Virus record (IMG/VR): IMGVR_UViG_2731957841_000002
Location: 1 to 9,726 of that record
DNA length: 9,726 nucleotides
Direction: 5' to 3' (one strand)
DNA from: a virus
Taxonomy: Duplodnaviria; Heunggongvirae; Uroviricota; Caudoviricetes
Shown: in pieces, positions 1 through 9,726 of the stretch
Numbering within the stretch: the first letter of the stretch is position 1
Layout: the number at the start of each line of letters is the position of its first letter
Position numbers and translations under genes: made by a program
The notes under the pieces: model-generated
Databases searched by the model: none
Told to the model about the DNA's origin: nothing
The model's input: the letters and a program-made list of their open reading frames with translations, nothing else

Positions 1-1155
1 ATGCTCACCGTTAAGCAGATTGAAGCAGCAAAGCCGAAAGAAAAACCATACCGCCTACTCGATGGTAATGGCCTGTACCTTTATGTCCCTGTGTCAGGGA
101 AAAAGGTATGGCAGCTTCGCTACAAGATTGACGGTAAGGAAAAAATACTGACCGTAGGAAAATATCCGCTAATGACTTTGCAGGAGGCAAGAGATAAAGC
201 ATGGACCGCGAGGAAAGACATCTCGGTTGGCATCGATCCGGTAAAAGCGAAAAAGGCTTCGTCTAACAACAATTCCTTTAGTGCGATTTACAAGGAATGG
301 TACGAGCACAAGAAGCAAGTCTGGTCAGTAGGCTATGCAAACGAACTTGCCAAAATGTTTGATGACGACATTTTACCCATCATCGGCGGTCTTGAGATTC
401 AGGATATTGAGCCGATGCAACTGTTGGAAGTAATCCGCAGATTTGAAGATCGCGGTGCAATGGAGCGAGCCAACAAAGCACGCAGAAGATGCGGCGAGGT
501 TTTCCGTTACGCTATTGTCACTGGTAGGGCTAAATATAACCCGGCACCTGACCTTGCTGACGCCATGAAGGGATACCGCAAGAAGAACTTCCCGTTTCTT
601 CCAGCAGACCAGATCCCGGCATTCAACAAAGCACTGGCAACATTTTCAGGAAGTATCGTATCGCTCATTGCGACCAAAGTTTTACGCTACACAGCCCTAA
701 GAACGAAAGAACTTCGCTCCATGCAATGGAAGAACGTCGATTTTGAAAACAGGATTATCACCATCGACGCCAGTGTGATGAAGGGACGCAAAATTCATGT
801 GGTCCCGATGTCAGACCAGGTGGTTGAACTTCTCACTACGCTAAGCTCAATCACCAAACCAGTCTCAGAGTTTGTTTTTTCCGGGCGCAACGATAAGAAG
901 AAGCCAATCTGCGAGAACGCGGTATTGCTTGTGATCAAACAAATCGGCTATGAAGGCCTGGAAAGCGGTCACGGATTCAGGCATGAATTCAGCACGATTA
1001 TGAACGAGCACGAATGGCCTGCTGACGCTATTGAAGTGCAGCTGGCACATGCCAACGGCGGATCTGTGCGCGGTATTTACAACCATGCTCAGTATCTCGA
1101 TAAGCGCAGAGAAATGATGCAGTGGTGGGCGGATTGGCTTGATGGGAAGGTGTGA
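1..1155 (+). CDS. intS: Tyrosine site-specific integrase, P4 family (IntS-like)
   Basis: 384-aa ORF. N-terminus MLTVKQIEAAKPKEKPYRLLDGNGLYLYV fits the P4-integrase arm-binding domain pattern. C-terminal catalytic region has GHGFRHEF (His/Arg) and RGIYNHAQY (candidate Tyr nucleophile). Symbol assigned from memory of E. coli IntS; not verified. Confidence 0.9.
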   Translation: MLTVKQIEAAKPKEKPYRLLDGNGLYLYVPVSGKKVWQLRYKIDGKEKILTVGKYPLMTLQEARDKAWTARKDISVGIDPVKAKKASSNNNSFSAIYKEWYEHKKQVWSVGYANELAKMFDDDILPIIGGLEIQDIEPMQLLEVIRRFEDRGAMERANKARRRCGEVFRYAIVTGRAKYNPAPDLADAMKGYRKKNFPFLPADQIPAFNKALATFSGSIVSLIATKVLRYTALRTKELRSMQWKNVDFENRIITIDASVMKGRKIHVVPMSDQVVELLTTLSSITKPVSEFVFSGRNDKKKPICENAVLLVIKQIGYEGLESGHGFRHEFSTIMNEHEWPADAIEVQLAHANGGSVRGIYNHAQYLDKRREMMQWWADWLDGKV

Positions 1156-1158
1156 GGC

Positions 1159-1218
1159 ATTAGCGCAAGACGAATCGACACCTTCGCCAGTTTTGAGTTT
1201 TTTTTGCGCTAATTTTTT
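1159..1218 (+). terminator. Candidate intrinsic terminator after integrase gene
   Basis: 10-bp inverted repeat ATTAGCGCAA (1159-1168) / TTGCGCTAAT (1204-1213) followed by a T6 run (1213-1218). The enclosed loop is long (35 nt), so the call is weak. Confidence 0.3.
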
Positions 1219-1252
1219 GCCACAATCATGCTCCAGGCAATGAAAGCAAGCT

Positions 1253-1275
1253 GATGGTAGGTTATGATTACCATC
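1253..1275. promoter_or_regulatory. Inverted repeat GATGGTA-N9-TACCATC upstream of acyltransferase gene (candidate operator or RNA hairpin)
   Basis: Perfect 7-bp arms at 1253-1259 and 1269-1275, about 33 bp upstream of the ATG at 1308, at the GC-content transition into the AT-rich cargo gene. Confidence 0.2.
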
Positions 1276-1307
1276 TAATATTTATTCTTAAATAAGATGA
1301 GTATAGC

Positions 1308-2402
1308 ATGACCCTAAATAATAAAAACCTTGACATTCAAGCGCTAAGGGCGGTAGCCATAATAATGGTTATTCTACAACATTATAGAAATAGATTACCT
1401 TCGCCAGATTGGTATTTGAGCAGTTTTAATTACGTTAATTATTGGGCTGGAGTTGATATATTTTTGGCTATATCTGGATATTTGATGGCTAAAAGCTTAA
1501 CTGGGGAAATAAAAAAAACCGGCAGAACAACTAAAACATTTTTATTATTTTTATCTAAAAGAATATTTAGGCTAGCCCCATGCTTACTTGTATGGGGCAC
1601 CATCTGTATAATAATCTCTTATTTTATGCAACCTTCTTGGGGTGTTTCACCTCTTAAATCATTCACTACGTTATATACATCCCTACTTGGTTATTCTAAT
1701 ATCCACTTCTATAGGTGCGCAGTAACAGCAAATGATTGTGACCAAATGAATGCGGTGACCTGGTCTCTATCTTTGGAATGGCAACTGTATGCTATAATTG
1801 CGGCAATCATGCTGCTCTTTAACAGGAAAAATCTGACGATTATTTTCATATTCATAGTAGCTATTGCATCTTTCCTGCCAGTAACTCAAATGTACTATCA
1901 ATCCATTGGTTGGTGGATTAGACCACAAGCATTCTTTCTGGGAGCAATTATATTCATAACTGGAAGCAAGTGTTATGTAAGCAATAAATGCACAAGACTA
2001 TTTTTTATTATAGTTTGCATTTTTGTTTTACTCGTTGCCCCTCAGCACTTTAACTATAGATTGACATTACCTGCGATTGGTTTTGCTGGTGCATTATTAT
2101 TTCTATGTTTTATTAGTGGTGGTGTGGTAGATAAAAAAGATAATCCAGCATATAAAATGCTGGACTGGATTGGGGATAGATCTTATAGCATTTATCTTTG
2201 CCATTTACCATTACTACATGTAACAAGGGAGGTTTTGAACAAACTCTCCCTTAATACCGTCATTTACGAAAACAAAGTTATATACTTCTTCGCTTTCATT
2301 CTTTTGCTAGTTGTCTTTTCTGATTTATCATATAGATATGTAGAAAAGAAATTTATAAGAACAGGGAGACTAATAATGAGTAAAAATATTTCACCACTAT
2401 AA
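1308..2402 (+). CDS. Integral-membrane acyltransferase, acyltransferase-3 family (Oac/OafA-like O-antigen acetyltransferase candidate)
   Basis: 364-aa ORF, very hydrophobic with multiple predicted TM segments. N-terminal motif LRAVAIIMVILQH matches the conserved R-x10-H region of acyltransferase-3 proteins. Strongly AT-rich relative to flanking genes. Sits in the integrase-proximal cargo slot. Confidence 0.8.
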   Translation: MTLNNKNLDIQALRAVAIIMVILQHYRNRLPSPDWYLSSFNYVNYWAGVDIFLAISGYLMAKSLTGEIKKTGRTTKTFLLFLSKRIFRLAPCLLVWGTICIIISYFMQPSWGVSPLKSFTTLYTSLLGYSNIHFYRCAVTANDCDQMNAVTWSLSLEWQLYAIIAAIMLLFNRKNLTIIFIFIVAIASFLPVTQMYYQSIGWWIRPQAFFLGAIIFITGSKCYVSNKCTRLFFIIVCIFVLLVAPQHFNYRLTLPAIGFAGALLFLCFISGGVVDKKDNPAYKMLDWIGDRSYSIYLCHLPLLHVTREVLNKLSLNTVIYENKVIYFFAFILLLVVFSDLSYRYVEKKFIRTGRLIMSKNISPL

Positions 2403-2576
2403 TTCATCAATATATTCAGGGGGCAAAAACCTACCCTCTGAATATGTATACCCAACACCAACAACGCTATTGTCGTCAAGCTTTATACAGAGATAATCAT
2501 CGTATTGTTTTCCATCGCCGTTCCATAATATAACGTTAATCACAACATCATTTTCTACCAATGCATATTTCATCAT
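2397..2576 (-). CDS. Small hypothetical protein (59 aa), translationally coupled to the upstream fibre gene
   Basis: Hand-translated: MMKYALVENDVVINVILWNGDGKQYDDYLCIKLDDNSVVGVGYTYSEGRFLPPEYIDEL. Its ATG (2576-2574) overlaps the fibre gene TGA (2575-2573) as ATGA. Below the length cut-off of the supplied ORF track. Its 3' end overlaps the convergent acyltransferase stop by 6 bp. Confidence 0.4.
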   Translation of the reverse strand: MMKYALVENDVVINVILWNGDGKQYDDYLCIKLDDNSVVGVGYTYSEGRFLPPEYIDEL

Positions 2577-3475
2577 GCATACTCCCAGATAAGAACAATA
2601 CCATTACCACCGGCGGCTCCGTTATATTGGGTGGCATTATTCACATATGCGTTAGCCCCACCGCCCCCAGCCCCGAAACCAGTCGGCAATACACCGATAC
2701 CCGCTGAGCCGTGTGGATTACCACCCACACCTAATGGACTATTACCTCCGCCACCAGAGATGATAGAGCTAGTCGATATAGCCATGCCAATAGTTGGATT
2801 CTCTCCAGAGAGATTTAAAATATTACCTCCGGATGCTATAGGAATTCCTGGTGAGTTCTGAATAATAGGAGGTACCCCATTTCCTGAACCACCACCAAAT
2901 CCACCGCCAGCGGTTATAGATCCGAAAGAAGATCCACCACCGTTTCCTCCATTACCGTTAACCCCACCAGCTCCACCAGCTCCAATGGTTACAGTATATG
3001 CTGAGTCTAAATTGGTGATACGGGATTTAGCGTAGGCGCCACCTCCCCCTCCACACCCAACTGCAACACTGGTAGAGTTAGTTGTACCAACCCCGCCCCC
3101 TCCTCCGCCTGCGCCTTGGACTTCAACAATAATGCTTTTCGTTCCTGGGGTTGGCGTATAAGTCCCGGATGTCGTTATTGTGCGAACACCAATAAGCCGT
3201 CCTGTTGCAGCCTGCTCTACCGCACTCGCTAATTGCGCAGAGAGCCCCGCAATATCACCATTATCTTTCACATCCTCACTGGTATTATCTGCGATAAACT
3301 GCCCCACAGCAGCCGCCATTGCCGTTCCTTGCCTCAGACCTTTGTTCACCTGAGCACTTGATGCCTTCCCCGATGTAAAGCCAGCAGATAGGACAGGTAA
3401 TGATTCCCAGTCTGTCTGAGTTGTTACGTTAGCACCAGAGCCAGTTGCAAATGGTTTAAATTCATTTTTAGCCAT
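2573..3475 (-). CDS. Glycine-rich phage tail-fibre-like protein
   Basis: Long GGxGG/GNGG tracts typical of phage fibre or collar proteins. N-terminus MAKNEFKPFATGSGANVTTQ. Start chosen at ATG 3475-3473, overlapping the upstream gene stop as TGATG. The ORF track's alternative start at 3493 adds 6 codons but has an SD only 1 nt from the ATG. Confidence 0.7.
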   Translation of the reverse strand: MAKNEFKPFATGSGANVTTQTDWESLPVLSAGFTSGKASSAQVNKGLRQGTAMAAAVGQFIADNTSEDVKDNGDIAGLSAQLASAVEQAATGRLIGVRTITTSGTYTPTPGTKSIIVEVQGAGGGGGGVGTTNSTSVAVGCGGGGGAYAKSRITNLDSAYTVTIGAGGAGGVNGNGGNGGGSSFGSITAGGGFGGGSGNGVPPIIQNSPGIPIASGGNILNLSGENPTIGMAISTSSIISGGGGNSPLGVGGNPHGSAGIGVLPTGFGAGGGGANAYVNNATQYNGAAGGNGIVLIWEYA

Positions 3476-4155
3476 CAGAGTAATTTCCCCCATGCTCCTA
3501 CATCAAAACCACTGATGAATTCGTTATCCATATCAAAACCAAAAAATTTTGAACCTTCCGATGGAGTTTCCACCGAAGGTGTTTCAATGCCACCCGCCCA
3601 CACACCGGCGGCTTTTACTGTGAGATACCCCTGTTTAATTGCCGCAATTAACTCACGCGATACATCTGAAATATCAGTATCAGGAAAGACCCAGACCGAT
3701 ATCGTCATGTCCTGGTTATCGACAATCTGCATTCGCAGCCCGGCTCCTGCTGTCGCCGTGTCAAGAATTGCCGGAAGCGAATCATTCCGTCCGTCCCAGT
3801 TATTAATCGCAATCTTCGCTTTAAGGATGACACGATAAGTTTCATCGCTGAGGTACATGTATCCGGAATCAGGATCGTATGGCCCCTGCCATACACCCTG
3901 ATCATATCCAAGCCCGTCGGTATCCCAGCTGAAATAGATACCTGAGATAGGCTGGCTGACAACACGGCTACGCCCGATCCACAATCCCAGAATGTCAAGT
4001 TGCACACCAACGGCAGAGTCAATATCAAATGCAGTAATCAGCCCTCTGGTGGCAGCCGCAACATCAATAAGCGGCCGGGTCATCAGATCAACATGCGCAA
4101 GAAATTTAGGTTTGGTGGCGTGGTAGTTCGTGATTAGTTCGGTGTATTTGCTCAT
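3475..4155 (-). CDS. Phage tail/baseplate-associated protein of unknown function (possibly DUF2612-type)
   Basis: 226-aa ORF in an operon with the fibre gene. ATGA overlap with the upstream 172-aa gene. Family assignment is from memory and tentative. Confidence 0.7.
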   Translation of the reverse strand: MSKYTELITNYHATKPKFLAHVDLMTRPLIDVAAATRGLITAFDIDSAVGVQLDILGLWIGRSRVVSQPISGIYFSWDTDGLGYDQGVWQGPYDPDSGYMYLSDETYRVILKAKIAINNWDGRNDSLPAILDTATAGAGLRMQIVDNQDMTISVWVFPDTDISDVSRELIAAIKQGYLTVKAAGVWAGGIETPSVETPSEGSKFFGFDMDNEFISGFDVGAWGKLL

Positions 4156-4670
4156 GACTCCACCGTTATAACGATATTTTCCGGGGTACAGGACGCAGAT
4201 TCGTTATATCTGATATCAATGTTTGATGACGACAAAGCCCCCGGGGATTTCCCAATCGTCAGTTCCTGAATATCGTAATAGCGTGCATTACCGGTTTTAG
4301 CGTTGGCATTATCCGGTTGTTTCTGGAACGCAACACTGCGTGCCGTGATGATGTCGCCGCTGACCTTGTTGCGGATCACGATAACGTTATTCCCCCATGT
4401 GGCAGAAGACTGGCTCTGTGCGTTATACGCCAGCGACAATTTTTTATTTGTCGGTGATGTCTTCAGAAGGTTAACGGTAATCGTCCCGCTTTTATCTGCA
4501 TGGAGACTGTGCATCACTTCGCCATCAGCACCGATGGTCATGGTGTTTTTAGGACCGCCCATCGCAACCACAATCCCCTCTTCAGAACTTGCAGAACCGT
4601 ACCCGAGGTCAATCGAACCGGTCGGCCCGGTCAGCGTCGCAGTGACATCCATAAAAGAATAGGTAGACAT
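4152..4670 (-). CDS. Phage tail-module protein, unknown function (172 aa)
   Basis: First gene of the leftward tail remnant. SD-like AAGGGGAAG upstream of the ATG at 4670. Coupled to the downstream gene. Confidence 0.7.
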   Translation of the reverse strand: MSTYSFMDVTATLTGPTGSIDLGYGSASSEEGIVVAMGGPKNTMTIGADGEVMHSLHADKSGTITVNLLKTSPTNKKLSLAYNAQSQSSATWGNNVIVIRNKVSGDIITARSVAFQKQPDNANAKTGNARYYDIQELTIGKSPGALSSSNIDIRYNESASCTPENIVITVES

Positions 4671-4680
4671 TCACTTCCCC

Positions 4681-4773
4681 TTAGCGAACAACGTTAATCT
4701 GTACGTCAGCGTAATGAACCGCGCCTGCAAGTTTTATTGCAGCCTGAATCACCGGAGCCTTAAGGGCGCACAT
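4681..4773 (-). pseudogene. Probable C-terminal remnant of a deleted late gene (30-codon ORF ending ...APVIQAAIKLAGAVHYADVQINVVR)
   Basis: Hand-translated frame reads like a genuine protein C-terminus and stops just before the RBS of the 172-aa gene. Overlaps the end of the truncated cro-like ORF in another frame. Confidence 0.3.
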
Positions 4774-4882
4774 AGATCCCCTTCACCTTGTCTGCGGTAG
4801 CTCCCTGTGTGCATCCAACTGCCTTAGCAAGTGTTGTTTGAGAGATATTCAGTGACTCTCGATATTTTCGTAGGTTGCTCAT
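4760..4882 (-). CDS. Cro-like HTH protein, apparently C-terminally truncated (40 aa)
   Basis: MSNLRKYRESLNISQTTLAKAVGCTQGATADKVKGIYVRP has an HTH (ISQTTLAKAVGC) and is divergent from cI, as cro is in lambda. GGAGGG lies upstream of the ATG. Shorter than typical Cro proteins (about 60-75 aa). The ORF track's 97-aa version runs upstream through the operator region. Confidence 0.5.
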   Translation of the reverse strand: MSNLRKYRESLNISQTTLAKAVGCTQGATADKVKGIYVRP

Positions 4883-4908
4883 ATGCCCTCCATAGTAACC
4901 ATGAAACA

Positions 4909-4937
4909 ATAATACGATATGTACTTTTAGAATGCAA
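4909..4937 (-). promoter_or_regulatory. pR-like promoter for the cro-like gene
   Basis: On the minus strand: -35 TTGCAT (4937-4932), 17-bp spacer, -10 TATTAT (4914-4909). The spacer contains a GTAC-centred motif shared with the pL region, a candidate operator. Confidence 0.4.
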
Positions 4938-4993
4938 ACAAAAAATACATCTTGTGCATGGATGGTTTTAGTACAGAGCGTAATAATAAGGGT

Positions 4994-5653
4994 ATGAAAA
5001 TGAAATGGTATGAACTGGCTAGATCCAGAATGAAAGAGCTCGGCATAACTCAAGAGAAGTTAGCTGAAGAGCTTGGTATGACGCAGGGTGGAATTGGTCA
5101 CTGGTTGCGCGGATCTCGTCATCCATCTCTTGACGAGATTGGTGTGGTGTTTAAATACCTTGGTATTGATAACGTCTCATTCAACCACGACGGTACATTT
5201 TCACCTGTTGGCGAATACTCATCTGCCCCCGTTAAAAAACAATATGAGTACCCTGTTTTTTCTCATGTTCAGGCCGGGATGTTCTCGCCTGAGCTTAGAA
5301 CCTTTACCAAAGGTGATGCGGAGAGATGGGTCAGCACAACCAAAAAAGCCAGTGATTGTGCGTTTTGGCTTGAAGTTGAAGGTAATTCCATGACCGCGCC
5401 AACAGGATCCAAGCCAAGCTTTCCTGACGGGATGTTAATTCTCGTTGACCCTGATCAGGCTGTTGAGCCAGGTGATTTCTGCATAGCCAGACTTGGTGGT
5501 GACGAGTTTACCTTTAAGAAACTGATCAGGGATAGCGGTCAGGTGTTCCTCCAGCCACTAAACCCGCAATATCCAATGATTCCATGCAATGATAGCTGTT
5601 CCGTAGTAGGGAAAGTTATCGCCAGCCAGTGGCCTGAAGAGACATTTAGTTAA
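4994..5653 (+). CDS. cI: CI-type prophage repressor (HTH N-terminal domain plus S24 LexA-like autopeptidase C-terminal domain)
   Basis: C-terminal half nearly matches lambda cI as I recall it: [50 protein letters not shown] (Ser nucleophile), FTFKKL (Lys), plus an Ala-Gly cleavage site in QAGM. N-terminal HTH domain is unlike lambda. Start placed at ATG 4994 (AAGGG upstream) rather than the TTG at 4952 in the ORF track. Confidence 0.9.
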
Positions 5654-5684
5654 CAGCCTCACCACTCTAAAACACACAACAATA

Positions 5685-5713
5685 ACCCGACCTTAGCGTC
5701 GGGTTTTCTTTTT
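5685..5713 (+). terminator. Intrinsic terminator downstream of cI
   Basis: Stem ACCCGAC (5685-5691) / GTCGGGT (5698-5704), 6-nt loop, then TTTCTTTTT (5705-5713). Confidence 0.6.
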
Positions 5714-5778
5714 CCAAAATATAAACCCATTAAATACAAAGCGTTATAAAAAACTAATTATATTTAGAACATTTTGTA

Positions 5779-5807
5779 TTGACTCGATAAAGTACAAATC
5801 GTACTAT
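5779..5807 (+). promoter_or_regulatory. pL-like early-left promoter
   Basis: -35 TTGACT (5779-5784), 17-bp spacer, -10 TACTAT (5802-5807). The downstream transcript start region ATCAGCAGGACGCACTGACC matches the lambda pL transcript start as I recall it. Confidence 0.5.
5791..5805. promoter_or_regulatory. Candidate repressor operator (palindrome AGTAC-N5-GTACT) overlapping the pL -10
   Basis: Perfect 5-bp inverted arms. Related AGTAC/GTACT motifs recur in the cro-cI intergenic region (4921-4925, 4970-4974). Confidence 0.3.
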
Positions 5808-5846
5808 TTAGCCATCAGCAGGACGCACTGACCACCATGAAGGTGA

Positions 5847-5877
5847 TGCTCTTAAAAATTAAGCCCTGAAGAAGGGC
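5847..5877 (+). promoter_or_regulatory. nutL-type antitermination site (boxA TGCTCTTAA plus boxB hairpin GCCCTGAAGAAGGGC)
   Basis: boxB (5863-5877) is identical to the lambda nutL boxB. boxA (5847-5855) differs from lambda CGCTCTTAA at its first base and resembles the rrn-type boxA TGCTCTT. Spacer is AAATTAA as in lambda. Confidence 0.7.
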
Positions 5878-6049
5878 AGCATTCAAAGCAGAAGGCTTTG
5901 GGGTGTGGTGAAGGGTTCATGGATGGGAATATGTCGCACGTAAAGCGGCGAGGCCTGCGGAACTATTGCCGAATTGAAGTCGGCCGAAGCAGGTCGAAAT
6001 GGGTCTCCCACCTACCACACCACCAAAGCTAACTGACAGGAGAATCCAG

Positions 6050-6253
6050 ATGGCAAAGCAATCAAAACCATCACCTACACCTGAACAGGTTCTAAAAGCA
6101 TTCACTGACGCAGCAATGCAGAAAAACACCGTGGAAGAGCTTAAACAGGCGTTCGCCAAAGCGTGGAAGATGCTCGAAGGAACACCGGAGCAGCACAAAG
6201 CGCAGGACGTTTACAACATCAGACGAGACGAATTAGAAGGAGCGGCTGCTTAA
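6050..6253 (+). CDS. Hypothetical small protein (67 aa) in the position lambda N would occupy; not N-like
   Basis: AGGAGA RBS and ATG context match the lambda N start region as I recall it, but the protein (MAKQSKPSPTPEQVLKAF...) has no arginine-rich motif. The ORF track's upstream extension from 5999 lacks an RBS. Confidence 0.6.
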   Translation: MAKQSKPSPTPEQVLKAFTDAAMQKNTVEELKQAFAKAWKMLEGTPEQHKAQDVYNIRRDELEGAAA

Positions 6254-6636
6254 TGGCACATTCGATTACTGTAAGACTAAACAAACCCGCAAGAGAGTTT
6301 CAGGCCGGGGAAAATATCGGATTCAACATCCGTGCTGGCGTTCAGTATTACGATCGCCAGACAAAAAAGAAAGAATGGACAAACTACAGCGCCGTTGTAT
6401 TTGCCAAGCCAGGAGCGCAAGCGGATTACTACCGTAGTGTTCTTGTTGAAGGTGGCATTGTGGAAATTACCGGAGAAAACATCAGGGTTGATGTTTATCA
6501 GGGGCAAAATGGTCAATCAATCACTCTTGAATTACTGAATGCAAAGATTGGATTTGCAACTTCAGGAAACAGCCAACAGCAGCAAAGTAGCAATCATCAA
6601 AATCATCCTGAATACGACGATTCAATTCCCTTCTAA
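6253..6636 (+). CDS. SSB-like single-stranded DNA-binding protein (short form, 127 aa) with conserved acidic C-terminal tip
   Basis: C-terminus ...PEYDDSIPF resembles the E. coli SSB tip DFDDDIPF, preceded by a Q-rich linker. The N-terminal ~100 aa is compatible with an OB fold (KEWTNYSAVVFAK, VEGGIVEITGE). TAATG stop/start overlap with the upstream gene. Confidence 0.7.
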   Translation: MAHSITVRLNKPAREFQAGENIGFNIRAGVQYYDRQTKKKEWTNYSAVVFAKPGAQADYYRSVLVEGGIVEITGENIRVDVYQGQNGQSITLELLNAKIGFATSGNSQQQQSSNHQNHPEYDDSIPF

Positions 6637-6659
6637 AGTAGCAAAATAAGGATTCCATT

Positions 6660-6953
6660 ATGCCAGCGCCTCTGTATGGTGCGGATGACCCGCGCCGCTG
6701 TTCCGGCAATTCCGTATCGGAGGTGCTGGATAAATTCAGAAAAAACTACGACCTGATAATGTCGCTACCGCAGGAAACGAAAGAGGAAAAGGAATTTCGT
6801 CATTGTATATGGCTTGCAGAGAAAGAAGAGCGCGAGCGAATTTACCAGACATCAATCCGACCATTCCGCAAAGCCACATATACCCACTTCCCTGAAATTG
6901 ACCCGCGCCTGCGTAATTACCGCTCACGCTATGGCGCTATCAGTAATGACTGA
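6660..6953 (+). CDS. Hypothetical protein (97 aa)
   Basis: AAGGA RBS 7 nt upstream of the ATG. Operon context. No recognisable domain. Confidence 0.6.
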   Translation: MPAPLYGADDPRRCSGNSVSEVLDKFRKNYDLIMSLPQETKEEKEFRHCIWLAEKEERERIYQTSIRPFRKATYTHFPEIDPRLRNYRSRYGAISND

Positions 6954-6963
6954 GGAATTAACA

Positions 6964-7254
6964 ATGAAAACAATGAAGCTAAACATCGACCTCGGAAAAT
7001 ACGTTATTACCGGAACCAAACACGACCTGATTCTTAGTGAAATAGGAATTATCAAAGAAGGTGAGAATGCAGGGAAAGAAACACTAAGTCGTATCGGTTA
7101 TTACAGCAAGTTTGAGCATCTGGTTAAAGAGTTATGCAACCGTGAAATTCTGTTATCTCAGGCGCAGACGTTACAGGATATTCAGCAGCATATCGAGACT
7201 TTATGTGTGTCACTTAGCATGGCTATTGACCAGTTCGTGGAGAGTAAATCATGA
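6964..7254 (+). CDS. Hypothetical protein (96 aa)
   Basis: GAGGAA RBS upstream of ATG 6964. The ORF track's longer version from 6814 overlaps the preceding gene and lacks an RBS. Confidence 0.6.
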
Positions 7255-7415
7255 GAGGACTTGCATACAATCCCGGCATTCTTCCGGCAGAAATGATTAT
7301 TCGCCAACGCGTAAAGCCAATGCCATCGAGAGAGGAATTGCTTAAGAGAAATTCTTTTCCGTCAGTAAATCAAAACAAATATCTGAATGCGATGTTGCGG
7401 AGTGGGAAAAAATGA
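7251..7415 (+). CDS. Hypothetical small basic protein (54 aa), translationally coupled at both ends
   Basis: Hand-translated: [58 protein letters not shown] overlap with the upstream gene stop and ATGA overlap with the downstream gene start. Below the ORF-track length cut-off. Confidence 0.35.
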
Positions 7416-7963
7416 AACAAATGTCACTAATTGAGATGGATGGTTTTCTGAAAGATAAATGCATCCCAAGTGATTTAAAGGTTAACGAAACAAACGCTGA
7501 ATATCTGGTGCGTAAATTTGCTGAAGCGGAGGCCAAGATTTCGGCTCTGTCCGAAGACCAGCAGAGAGCGATTGAGTCAATTAAGCAGGCTGATGCAGCT
7601 GTTAAGTTGGCACACGAGAAGTTTTCGGCGCTTGCGGCGGAGAATGCGGTAATGCTCGAAACTATTGAAGCCGTTCGCAGTGTTGCGGATAACTCCAGTG
7701 GAATTGCCGGATGGCATTTGAATGGCGATATCGCCACATGGGAAGAGATTCTTCCTGAAATTAACGATATCGAAACCCCAGCCACCGATGCTTTCCTGGC
7801 TGAAGTACGGGCGCAGGGGGTAGAGATGTACGCAGATAACCTCGACAACGTAGCAGACGACGCAGAACGAGGTGGTTTTGATTATGCCGTTAAGTTTCTA
7901 CGCAGTGAAGCGTCTAGTGTACGTTTGTTCGCCGACCAGCTTCGCAAAGGAGGCAACCAGTGA
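7412..7963 (+). CDS. Hypothetical acidic protein (183 aa)
   Basis: Operon context. GTGA overlap with the downstream gene. The antisense 168-aa ORF over the same region is low-complexity and judged spurious. Confidence 0.65.
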
Positions 7964-8484
7964 GCAAGATTGACTATCAGGCACTGCGTGAGTTAGCAAA
8001 ACAGGCAACACAGGGTGAATGGGTCGCATTTATTTCGCCGGGCAAATACGGCACGTACGCCGTACACACACCAGGTGATAATCATCACGGAGATATTGTC
8101 GACTGGCCAGGATTCGACGAACAGAAAAACGCAGAGAACAACGCTCGTTATATCGCAGCTTTCAACCCTGAAGTAGTGCTGGCACTGCTGGATGAACGGG
8201 AAAGAAACCAGCAATACATAAAACGCCGCGATCAGGAGAACGAGGAAATTGCGTTAACGGTAGGGAAGTTGCGCGTTGAGCTTGAGGCAGAAAAACAGCG
8301 GGCAAAGGATCTGTTTATGGAAAATGCTCGGCTTAAGTCAGGTATAGCCGGTCTGATACACCTCGGTATTCGATATGCAGATGTTGAGGTCATGAAAATT
8401 GCTGGAGATGCCCAGCTTTCTACCCCATGCACTGACAGCATCATAAACAGCATTGCAACAGGCATTCGCATCAAAGGAGAGTAA
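7960..8484 (+). CDS. Ead/Ea22-like early protein
   Basis: N-terminus [21 protein letters not shown] matches the conserved N-terminal signature of Ead/Ea22-like lambdoid early-left proteins as I recall it. GTG start with AAAGGAGG RBS. Confidence 0.75.
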   Translation: MSKIDYQALRELAKQATQGEWVAFISPGKYGTYAVHTPGDNHHGDIVDWPGFDEQKNAENNARYIAAFNPEVVLALLDERERNQQYIKRRDQENEEIALTVGKLRVELEAEKQRAKDLFMENARLKSGIAGLIHLGIRYADVEVMKIAGDAQLSTPCTDSIINSIATGIRIKGE

Positions 8485-8686
8485 TATGAGCAGGAATACG
8501 GGTTTGTAAAAGATAACGCTTGTGAAAATGCTGAATTTCGCGTCGTCTTCACAGCGATGCCAGAGTCTGTAGTGTCAGATGATGACCGTACTCAAACATC
8601 GGGTTGAGTATTATCTTACTGTTTCTTTACATAAACATTGCTGATACCGTTTAGCTGAAACGACATACATTGCAAGGAGTTTATAA

Positions 8687-8968
8687 ATGAGTATCAATGA
8701 GTTAGAGTCTGAGCAAAAAGATTGGGCGTTATCAATGTTGTGCAGATCCGGTGTCTTGTCTCCATGCAGACATCACGAAGGTGTTTATGTAGATGAAGGT
8801 ATAGATATAGAGTCGGCATACAAATATTCCATGAAGGTTTATAAGTCTAATGAAGACAAATCCCCATTCTGCAATGTGCGAGAAATGACTGATACCGTGC
8901 AAAATTATTATCACGAGTACGGTGGAAACGATACTTGCCCTCTCTGTACAAAACATATAGATGATTAA
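8687..8968 (+). CDS. Hypothetical Cys-containing small protein (93 aa), AT-rich
   Basis: AAGGAG RBS 8 nt upstream. Five Cys including a CPLC pair. Preceded by a 200-bp intergenic region and followed by tandem terminators, a moron-like arrangement. Confidence 0.6.
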   Translation: MSINELESEQKDWALSMLCRSGVLSPCRHHEGVYVDEGIDIESAYKYSMKVYKSNEDKSPFCNVREMTDTVQNYYHEYGGNDTCPLCTKHIDD

Positions 8969-8986
8969 ACCAAATATTACATAACA

Positions 8987-9015
8987 ATCCTCGCACTCGC
9001 GGGGATTTCTTTTAT
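8987..9015 (+). terminator. Intrinsic terminator (first of tandem pair)
   Basis: Stem ATCCTCGC / GCGGGGAT (one G-U wobble), 4-nt loop ACTC, followed by TTCTTTTAT. Confidence 0.5.
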
Positions 9016-9018
9016 CTG

Positions 9019-9044
9019 AACTCGCTACGGCGAGTTTTGTTTTA
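9019..9044 (+). terminator. Intrinsic terminator (second of tandem pair)
   Basis: Stem ACTCGC (9020-9025) / GCGAGT (9030-9035), loop TACG, followed by TTTGTTTTA. Confidence 0.55.
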
Positions 9045-9056
9045 TGGAGACAAGAA

Positions 9057-9401
9057 ATGTCAGATTTGGCTATGAAGGTTTTGAAATGGCAATCGACTAG
9101 CGATGTCAGTATCAGTAGCGCAACTCTTGCCTCAATCGCATGTGGACTGAAAAAGAATATCTATGGTCATCACTTCGGCGCTCCCCATGACGCAGCAGAC
9201 TTTCGGCGATGCGTTGCACTTGTTGAGCAGATTCCAGAAATCAGAGATTCATTCAACAAGGTTGCAAAGCGCGTTCCGGCATTCAAAGGAATCCTCAACG
9301 AATGGGATTCCCTCGTTGCTCTGTTGAAGTCTGAAATGAAGATACACGGAAACAAAGCACCAGAGACTTACAGAAGAATCAGCGAGCTACGCAAGGACTA
9401 A
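9057..9401 (+). CDS. Hypothetical protein (114 aa)
   Basis: GGAGA RBS upstream. Lies between the terminator pair and torI. A short hairpin (GCCTCA...TGAGGC, 9407-9425) follows it. Confidence 0.6.
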   Translation: MSDLAMKVLKWQSTSDVSISSATLASIACGLKKNIYGHHFGAPHDAADFRRCVALVEQIPEIRDSFNKVAKRVPAFKGILNEWDSLVALLKSEMKIHGNKAPETYRRISELRKD

Positions 9402-9525
9402 CCACCGCCTCACACTCGATGAGGCCTGTTCATTTCTCAAGATATCCAGACCTACCATTGCTGCATCAATGCGGCTTTTTATTGCCTGATTTGCAGGTTC
9501 AATTCCATATTCGGAGATAGCACTC

Positions 9526-9726
9526 ATGCAACACGAACTACAACCTGATTCACTGGTTGATTTGAAATTCATCATGGCTGATACTGGCTTCGGTAAGACC
9601 TTCATCTATGACCGGATTAAGTCCGGCGACCTGCCTAAAGCCAAAGTTATCCACGGACGAGCAAGATGGTTATATCGTGACCATTGTGAATTCAAAAATA
9701 AGCTCTTAAGCCGCGCCAATGGGTAA
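9526..9726 (+). CDS. torI: Excisionase / recombination directionality factor, TorI-like
   Basis: 66-aa protein MQHELQPDSLVDLKFIMADTGFGKTFIYDRIKSGDLPKAKVIHGRARWLYRDHCEFKNKLLSRANG matches TorI of E. coli KplE1 as I recall it. GGAGA RBS upstream. The window ends at its stop codon. Confidence 0.9.
   Translation: MQHELQPDSLVDLKFIMADTGFGKTFIYDRIKSGDLPKAKVIHGRARWLYRDHCEFKNKLLSRANG

Follow-up and report, generated by a model that had tools for sequence, protein, structure and literature searches.

A probable VT2-Sakai/Nil2-type immunity module with a lambda-like repressor C-terminus in a decayed KplE1/CPS-53-like prophage

Which immunity group does a prophage belong to when one half of its repressor is nearly that of phage lambda and the other half is not? 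This question is raised by a 9,726-nucleotide stretch of viral DNA (positions 1 to 9,726 of IMG/VR record IMGVR_UViG_2731957841_000002; hereafter the window), which carries a cI repressor gene between a pR-like and a pL-like promoter. An original prediction, made from the sequence without database searches, had described positions 4883-5813 as encoding a hybrid of a lambda-cI-like cleavage domain and a different DNA-binding domain, with no rexA-rexB. On the comparisons presented below, region 4883-5813 is, with a probability of about 0.88, an immunity module of the type found in lambdoid phages of the VT2-Sakai/Nil2/683R2 ('CI2c') group, located in a decayed KplE1/CPS-53-like prophage. The module is not new: it is a common, annotated and published immunity type.

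The cI product matched the Pfam family HTH_3 at residues 9-56 (E = 8.3e-11; 42.2 bits against a cutoff of 23) and the full Peptidase_S24 profile at residues 85-207 (E = 1.8e-28). Its closest solved structure was the lambda repressor 3BDN (E = 5.5e-96), and structures of the lambda C-terminal fragment (1F39, 2HO0 and 8GMU) matched at E = 1e-63 to 1e-89. In a global alignment with lambda cI (from NC_001416), residues 82-217 were identical to lambda residues 102-237 at 132 of 136 positions, the four differences being C120, D152, D198 and S217. The same alignment placed the scissile bond at Ala92-Gly93 (coded at 5273-5278) and the catalytic dyad at Ser130 (5387-5389) and Lys173 (5516-5518), opposite lambda Ala111-Gly112, Ser149 and Lys192 in mature numbering. 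These results confirmed the earlier claims that the C-terminal ~135 amino acids (aa) are nearly those of lambda cI and that the catalytic Ser/Lys and the Ala-Gly site are intact. The cleavage region and S24 domain, including Ala-Gly, Ser and Lys, are thus like those of lambda cI (3BDN, 1F39 and 2HO0). Because a helix-turn-helix (HTH) domain, an S24 domain, the Ser/Lys dyad and the Ala-Gly bond are all present, the window repressor has the sequence features of the self-cleaving class of LexA and lambda cI.

The N-terminal part was much further from lambda. Residues 1-81 were identical to lambda at 20 of 81 aligned positions (~25%), and the first 60 residues had 18 identities, with 16 gap columns in the same stretch. 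At the DNA level, homology to lambda started exactly at 5243 (codon 82) and ran to 5647 at 92.8% identity, and no DNA homology to lambda was found upstream of 5243. The domain junction, which the original prediction had proposed to place by pairwise alignment, therefore falls at codon 82, in the linker and ten residues before the scissile bond. The N-terminal HTH domain had been called unrelated to that of lambda. This description held insofar as the domain is of a different type with ~25% identity, but not as a statement about ancestry: the domain aligned with lambda through the HTH (ELG.xQExxAxxxGMxQxGxG), with conserved acidic helix-2 positions, and is a Cro/cI-type HTH_3 homologue of the lambda domain (~25-30% identity) that shares its fold family but belongs to a different sequence type.

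Close relatives of this module were found in both phages and bacterial genomes. Window positions 4795-6053 were 99.2% identical to phage vB_EcoP-683R2, with similar matches to Louie, Dewey, vB_EcoP-720R6 and phi458, and 99.8% identical to an intact-looking lambdoid prophage in GCA_000700185.1, where the same repressor protein is encoded beside cII, O, P, N, cIII, kil and erf. The 683R2 cI protein differs from that of the window at a single residue (E in place of D152). Window positions 4795-5653 were ~92% identical to phage Nil2 when measured directly, and the phage search gave ~92% over 4798-5653 for an Stx1-converting phage, Stx2 II, 2851 and the PA series, the last of which were equated by their authors with the Sakai Stx2a prophage. 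Nil2 CI has the same architecture and cro type as the window and is 96% identical to it in both the N-terminal part (78/81) and the C-terminal part (131/136); the nucleotide divergence is ~8%, and the OL regions are only 78% identical outside the operators. The CI proteins of VT2-Sakai, Nil2, AP005153, Stx2 II, 1717 and 2851 represent the 'CI2c' variant of Smith et al. 2012 (PMC3430580).

The N-terminal domain (residues 1-81) was 96-100% identical to those of phi458, 683R2, Nil2 and many Stx phages; 59 phage records matched it at 95-99% identity and 4 at 99% or more. Phage phi458, whose N-terminal domain is identical, is a live, plaque-forming and spontaneously induced phage. Villafane et al. 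2008 took an N-terminal identity of ~92% or more as the criterion for the same specificity (PMC2629481), and the N-terminal domains of the window and Nil2, with 78/81 identical residues, lie above this value. The domain was ~54% identical to those of Salmonella g341c/epsilon34. The repressors of these P22-like phages have an N-terminal domain of the same family and a lambda-like C-terminal domain (~78-81%), and a different specificity was predicted by Casjens and co-workers (PMC2629481). The cro-OR-cI segment was present in 1020 of 5426 complete E. coli genomes (~19%). GenBank contains an identical protein, annotated as 'repressor protein CI' (EST72679.1 and others; 90% cluster, n=1686) and deposited from E. 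coli P4-96 and 3-105-05_S3_C2. A C-terminus shared with lambda and joined to a different N-terminus was already stated by Smith et al. 2012 (PMC3430580), and Villafane et al. 2008 described the same pattern for epsilon34, naming L, VT2-Sa and Nil2 as N-terminal relatives (PMC2629481).

Given these relatives, 'hybrid' is a relative term. A lambda-type C-terminus is indeed joined to another N-terminus in the window repressor, but the term does not imply a direction of recombination, and lambda may itself be the recombinant. The window-type pairing would then be the older one, and lambda cI would have exchanged its N-terminal domain for a different one through recombination in the linker, just before the cleavage site. 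Consistent with this possibility, the C-terminal alleles are mutually equidistant (nucleotide identities of 92.2% for window-lambda, 90.5% for window-Nil2 and 92.9% for lambda-Nil2), and the window-type N-terminal domain is carried by two of these three alleles (window and Nil2). With 55% identity for the N-terminal part and 78% for the C-terminal part, the g341c repressor remains collinear with that of the window through the junction, where one of the two reads PVKPQFEYPFF; homology to lambda, in contrast, ends at this point. In addition, a related N-terminal domain is paired with a related S24 domain in phage L and Vibrio phage P2. However, the argument is one of parsimony on five sequences; the pairing with a lambda-type N-terminus could be equally old, or gene conversion by a lambda-like allele could have altered the 3′ half of a g341c-like ancestor. 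The direction of recombination is thinly supported, and we give a recombinant origin of lambda cI slightly less than an even chance.

Six 17-bp pseudo-palindromic sites of the form W-A-R-T-A-C N5 G-T-A-Y-T-W were located in two control regions, OR and OL (Table 1). All six were defined before any alignment was made. The core TAC-N5-GTA occurred 6 times in the window versus 1.4 expected, a count reached in 0 of 200 shuffles, and three of the six copies lay inside the two control regions. The perfect palindrome ARTAC-N5-GTAYT was present only twice in the 9.7 kb, on the -10 regions of pR (4911-4925) and pL (5791-5805), and four weaker matches complete the two operator triplets. The AGTAC/GTACT motifs that the original prediction had placed in candidate operators over the pR-like and pL-like promoters are thus real, and the operators containing them overlap pR and pL. 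The centre-to-centre spacings are 33 bp for OR1-OR2, 26 bp for OR2-OR3, 25 bp for OL1-OL2 and 33 bp for OL2-OL3. An additional operator between OR1 and OR2 (4926-4942) was considered and rejected, as this sequence is neither palindromic nor conserved in Nil2.

The comparison with related phages supported these sites. When the window was aligned with Nil2, only 1 of 60 half-site positions differed, whereas the rest of the two control regions showed changes at 41 of 155 positions (Fisher p = 5e-6); the substitutions map to the central spacers and to the stretches that separate the operators. In the Stx1-converting phage AP005153, features annotated as 'putative operator' fall on the three OR sites, and all six sites match one to one the 17-mers listed as OR1-3 and OL1-3 of VT2-Sakai (Table S1, PMC10742460). 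The operator proposed for the epsilon34/g341c-type repressor, WTACRAWWTGTAT, has the same core ATAC-N5-GTAT as the window (PMC2629481). In contrast, the lambda operator consensus TATCACCGCCAGTGGTA gave 0 matches in the window with up to 3 mismatches. Lambda CI bound the VT2-Sakai operators at 3.7-6.4 µM versus 0.21-0.35 µM for its own OR1 and OL1 (PMC10742460).

The pR-like promoter coincides with the 'putative major rightward promoter' annotated in AP005153. The -35 of the candidate maintenance promoter pRM agrees with the hexamer that AP005153 lists for its 'maintenance promoter for CI', and the -10 falls within the -10 region annotated there; transcription from this putative promoter, assigned from sequence, would begin at, or close to, the ATG at 4994. 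The latter is an alternative in-frame start of cI (MKMKW...) that is kept in Vibrio phage P2 and g341c. A 231-aa form starting at ATG 4958, found in some members of the GenBank cluster, was rejected: this start lies inside OR2. Because the homologues share MKMKW/MKW, a start at 4994 or 5000 is more likely than one at 4958.

The interval from cI to pL was short. The cI stop codon is followed by 22 bp and then by a sequence (5676-5711) homologous to lambda 35834-35799, which comprises the last bases of rexB and the terminator after it. The hairpin at 5684-5705 with its T-run had a predicted energy of -12.4 kcal/mol (z = -4.1), and its stem has one compensatory change from lambda, A:T for G:C. 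Relative to lambda, the 1398 bp of rexA and rexB are replaced by 28 bp. A tblastn search of the window with lambda RexA and RexB gave nothing better than E = 1.5, in agreement with the claim that rexA-rexB are absent, and the order cI, terminator (hairpin at 5684-5705) and pL (5779-5807) was as predicted. The window and lambda have in common the terminator that delimits the cI-pL slot. Lambda-like sequence starts again at 5813, a single base ahead of the inferred pL +1, and covers, besides the leader and nutL (Table 1), the ribosome-binding site and ATG of N (6016-6053; 100% identical). The nutL boxA of the window differs by one base from the lambda boxA, CGCTCTTA, towards the rrn boxA consensus. 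The cargo of the cI-pL slot varied among relatives: it was empty in the window and 683R2, held a 173-aa ORF22/b63 in Nil2 and the Stx1 phage, and held rexAB in lambda. In epsilon34/g341c, two unrelated genes of unknown function occupy the rexAB position (PMC2629481).

The window thus resembles lambda in its post-operon terminator type, pL +1, nutL, N ribosome-binding site and placement of OR2 relative to pRM, and differs from it in the cI N-terminal domain, the operators, the operator spacings and the absence of rexA/rexB. As the lambda-type N-terminal domain, the lambda operators and rexA-rexB are all absent, the module lies outside the lambda immunity group. The different immunity specificity implied by the original prediction therefore agrees with these data: with another type of N-terminal domain and no lambda operators, immunity should differ.

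A point missing from the original prediction is that the module is part of a defective prophage, in which cro is truncated and N is deleted. The first 28-29 codons of cro, which is divergently transcribed from cI, are of the cognate VT2-Sakai/Nil2 type and the remainder is deleted; past 4795 the open reading frame (ORF) continues into unrelated DNA that adjoins tail and baseplate genes. The remnant matches only the first 24 positions of HTH_3 and is cut in the HTH recognition helix. Positions 4761-4799 (39 bp) recur unchanged within a 'structural cement protein Gp24' pseudogene carried by the related element of E. coli E89, indicating that the deletion joined the early region to virion genes. 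On the other side, a 2750-bp deletion at 6053 relative to the intact prophage of GCA_000700185.1 removed N, cIII, kil and most of erf; the sequences joined there share a microhomology of only ~3-4 bp. This places the N start codon in frame with the end of erf, and the 67-aa ORF so formed is a fusion artefact rather than an N protein. Because N was deleted, nutL stands without an N gene anywhere in the window. By comparison, cro is complete (71 aa) in phages of the 683R2 group and their N is of the lambda type (107 aa), whereas cro of the window is cut and N is replaced by an erf fragment. Neither the junction at 4795 nor that at 6053 was spanned by any of the 5426 complete E. coli genomes; the N::erf junction at 6053, the only one of the two also searched in species-representative genomes, had 0 matches there with a 30-mer. 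Replication, lysis and head genes were also absent from the element. It is incapable of lytic growth and, because cro is truncated and N deleted, repressor cleavage could not lead to such growth.

These deletions raise the possibility that cI is an inert relic of a decaying prophage that has no useful expression and is intact merely because the deletions are recent. The absence of both junctions from the complete E. coli genomes and the 99.8% identity to an intact prophage, which leaves little time for decay, fit this explanation, as does the loss of the pRE/cII establishment route. On the other hand, the cI ORF, the six operators, the proposed pRM and the terminator are all intact, and maintenance expression in lambda requires just pRM and the repressor. 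We consider that the gene is unlikely to be such a relic.

Since the domain layout of the repressor, its catalytic residues, the conservation of the six operators and the way these overlap pR and pL are established, the working of the switch can be proposed by analogy with lambda. Repressor dimers would occupy the operators and so silence pR and pL. The dimer on OR2, centred at about -43 from 4994, would activate the weak pRM through its conserved acidic helix-2 residues (Glu19 and Glu23, opposite lambda Glu34 and Asp38 in the alignment), and occupancy of OR3 would autorepress cI. Because the cleavage region and C-terminal domain are 97% lambda, dimerisation, cooperativity and OL-OR looping are expected to follow lambda, and under SOS conditions RecA*-stimulated self-cleavage at Ala92-Gly93 by Ser130/Lys173 would be expected as well. 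In the window copy the switch is one-sided, since cro is truncated and N and the replication, lysis and head genes are gone. At most, the repressor may confer immunity to homo-immune phages and SOS-sensitive repression of the residual pL operon.

Inactivation by an antirepressor or another route, as in Gifsy-type prophages, could replace RecA-stimulated self-cleavage. The four C-terminal residues that differ from lambda would leave room for such a route; however, three of the four changes are conservative, all four are distant from the cleavage site and the dyad, and the Ala-Gly site, Ser130, Lys173 and 132/136 of the C-terminal residues are those of lambda. In addition, there is no antirepressor gene in the window, and we regard this alternative as very improbable. 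A chimeric assembly or contamination as the source of the lambda-like 3′ half can be dismissed because the gene is so widely distributed: the same contiguous gene is present in 63 phage records whose N-terminal identity is at least 95%, phage genomes match it at 99%, and it recurs in ~1000 complete E. coli genomes and as an exact GenBank protein.

Several points weigh against reading region 4883-5813 as a functional VT2-Sakai/Nil2/683R2-type module. The operator spacings are unlike those of lambda (24 bp for OR1-OR2 and 20 bp for OL2-OL3, versus 33 bp for both in the window), and therefore the pattern of cooperative pairing may differ. The proposed pRM agrees with the consensus at 8 of 12 positions, against a threshold of 9 in the promoter scan, which did not list it. 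The pRE/cII establishment pathway is deleted in the window element. The 99.8% identity to the intact prophage indicates that the deletions were recent, so the intact cI ORF is no evidence of selection. Finally, lambda is the basis for the proposed binding, cooperativity, pRM activation and cleavage, and our literature search found no report of the cognate repressor binding the six operators or of its RecA-dependent cleavage.

Table 1. Coordinates of features in the 9,726-nucleotide window
Feature	Position	Strand	Remarks
cI repressor gene, 217 aa	5000..5653	+	From ORF list, structure relatives, Pfam and alignment
N-terminal HTH_3 DNA-binding domain and first part of linker (residues 1-81)	5000..5242	+	
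Lambda-type cleavage-site region and S24 C-terminal domain (residues 82-217)	5243..5650	+	
pR-like promoter	4909..4938	-	-35 TTTGCA 4938-4933, -10 TATTAT 4914-4909
OR1 TAATACGATATGTACTT	4910..4926		Centre 4918; perfect palindromic core; overlaps pR -10 and spacer; equals AP005153 annotated operator and published VT2-Sakai OR1
OR2 AAATACATCTTGTGCAT	4943..4959		Centre 4951; abuts proposed pRM -35; centre ~-43 from start at 4994; half-sites unchanged in Nil2, spacer variable
OR3 TAGTACAGAGCGTAATA	4969..4985		Centre 4977; overlaps proposed pRM spacer and -10
pRM, putative weak maintenance promoter	4959..4987	+	-35 TGGATG 4959-4964, -10 AATAAT 4982-4987
Intrinsic terminator after cI	5684..5715	+	Homologue of lambda post-rexB terminator
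OL3 AAATACAAAGCGTTATA	5732..5748		Centre 5740
OL2 TAGAACATTTTGTATTG	5765..5781		Centre 5773; overlaps pL -35
OL1 AAGTACAAATCGTACTA	5790..5806		Centre 5798; perfect palindrome; overlaps pL spacer and -10
pL	5779..5814	+	-35 TTGACT 5779-5784, -10 TACTAT 5802-5807, inferred +1 5814
Lambda-type pL leader with nutL	5813..5907	+	98.9% identical to lambda 35583-35489
nutL boxA TGCTCTTA	5847-5854		
nutL boxB GCCCTGAAGAAGGGC	5863-5877		
cro remnant	4760..4882	-	Codons 1 to 28-29 (4795-4882) equal the 71-aa Cro of 683R2; stop after 40 aa
N'-'erf fusion ORF, 67 aa	6050..6253	+	N ATG in frame with last 66 erf codons
Residual pL operon			ssb-like gene, abc2, ead-like genes, torI
intS integrase gene	1-1155		Left end of window
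abc2 (anti-RecBCD)	6660-6953		Follows SSB-like gene
torI	9526-9726		Right end of window

With intS at one end and torI at the other, the window represents a small, decayed KplE1/CPS-53-like prophage. The KplE1/CPS-53 cryptic prophage of E. coli K-12 (intS ... torI at argW) has the same intS start and torI end as the window, and in the related element of E. coli E89 the intS/torI pair is flanked by tRNA-Arg and dsdC, the location of KplE1/CPS-53. The window element differs from KplE1/CPS-53 in that it retains an immunity module and in that an O-antigen acetyltransferase adjoins intS; the K-12 element has gtr-like genes beside intS and is not known to carry cI. The acetyltransferase-like gene lies at 1308-2402 (PHROG O-acetyltransferase, E = 2.5e-51), and an IS1 insertion was present at its 5′ end in E. 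coli E89. Window positions 1-4293, with intS, the acyltransferase and tail-fibre and baseplate genes, were 100% identical to E. coli PI24. The whole 9.7-kb arrangement was found in no complete E. coli genome, and sibling elements at the KplE1/CPS-53 locus showed different deletions.

Downstream of the N::erf junction, positions 6253-6636 encode an SSB-like protein of 127 aa ending in DDSIPF (PHROG single-strand DNA binding protein, E = 2e-28), which had no Pfam hit. A scan of the whole window against Rfam at gathering thresholds gave no matches.

As a case of phage evolution, this locus is a rediscovery of textbook lambdoid mosaicism: a crossover in the repressor linker, a module boundary at pL +1 and variable cargo between cI and pL. 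Its evolutionary interest is modest and lies in the possibility that lambda's own repressor may be recombinant. For annotation, the element can be described as a defective KplE1-like prophage, not inducible to lytic growth, that may still confer immunity to phages of the VT2-Sakai/683R2 type, including Stx-converting phages.

A more speculative possibility, which we consider rather improbable, is that the host now uses the repressor cassette for immunity to a common phage group and for SOS control of the pL leftovers without lysis; separately, mixed complexes with lambda-type repressors might form. If this were true, the host would be immune to a phage group whose immunity type occurs in about one fifth of complete E. 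coli genomes, and the ssb-like gene, abc2 (anti-RecBCD), the ead-like genes and torI (excisionase/TorR-inhibitor) would be under SOS control. Because the C-terminal domain is essentially that of lambda, mixed dimers with lambda-type repressors are conceivable, and such dimers or cooperative complexes in polylysogens would couple the stability of hetero-immune prophages.

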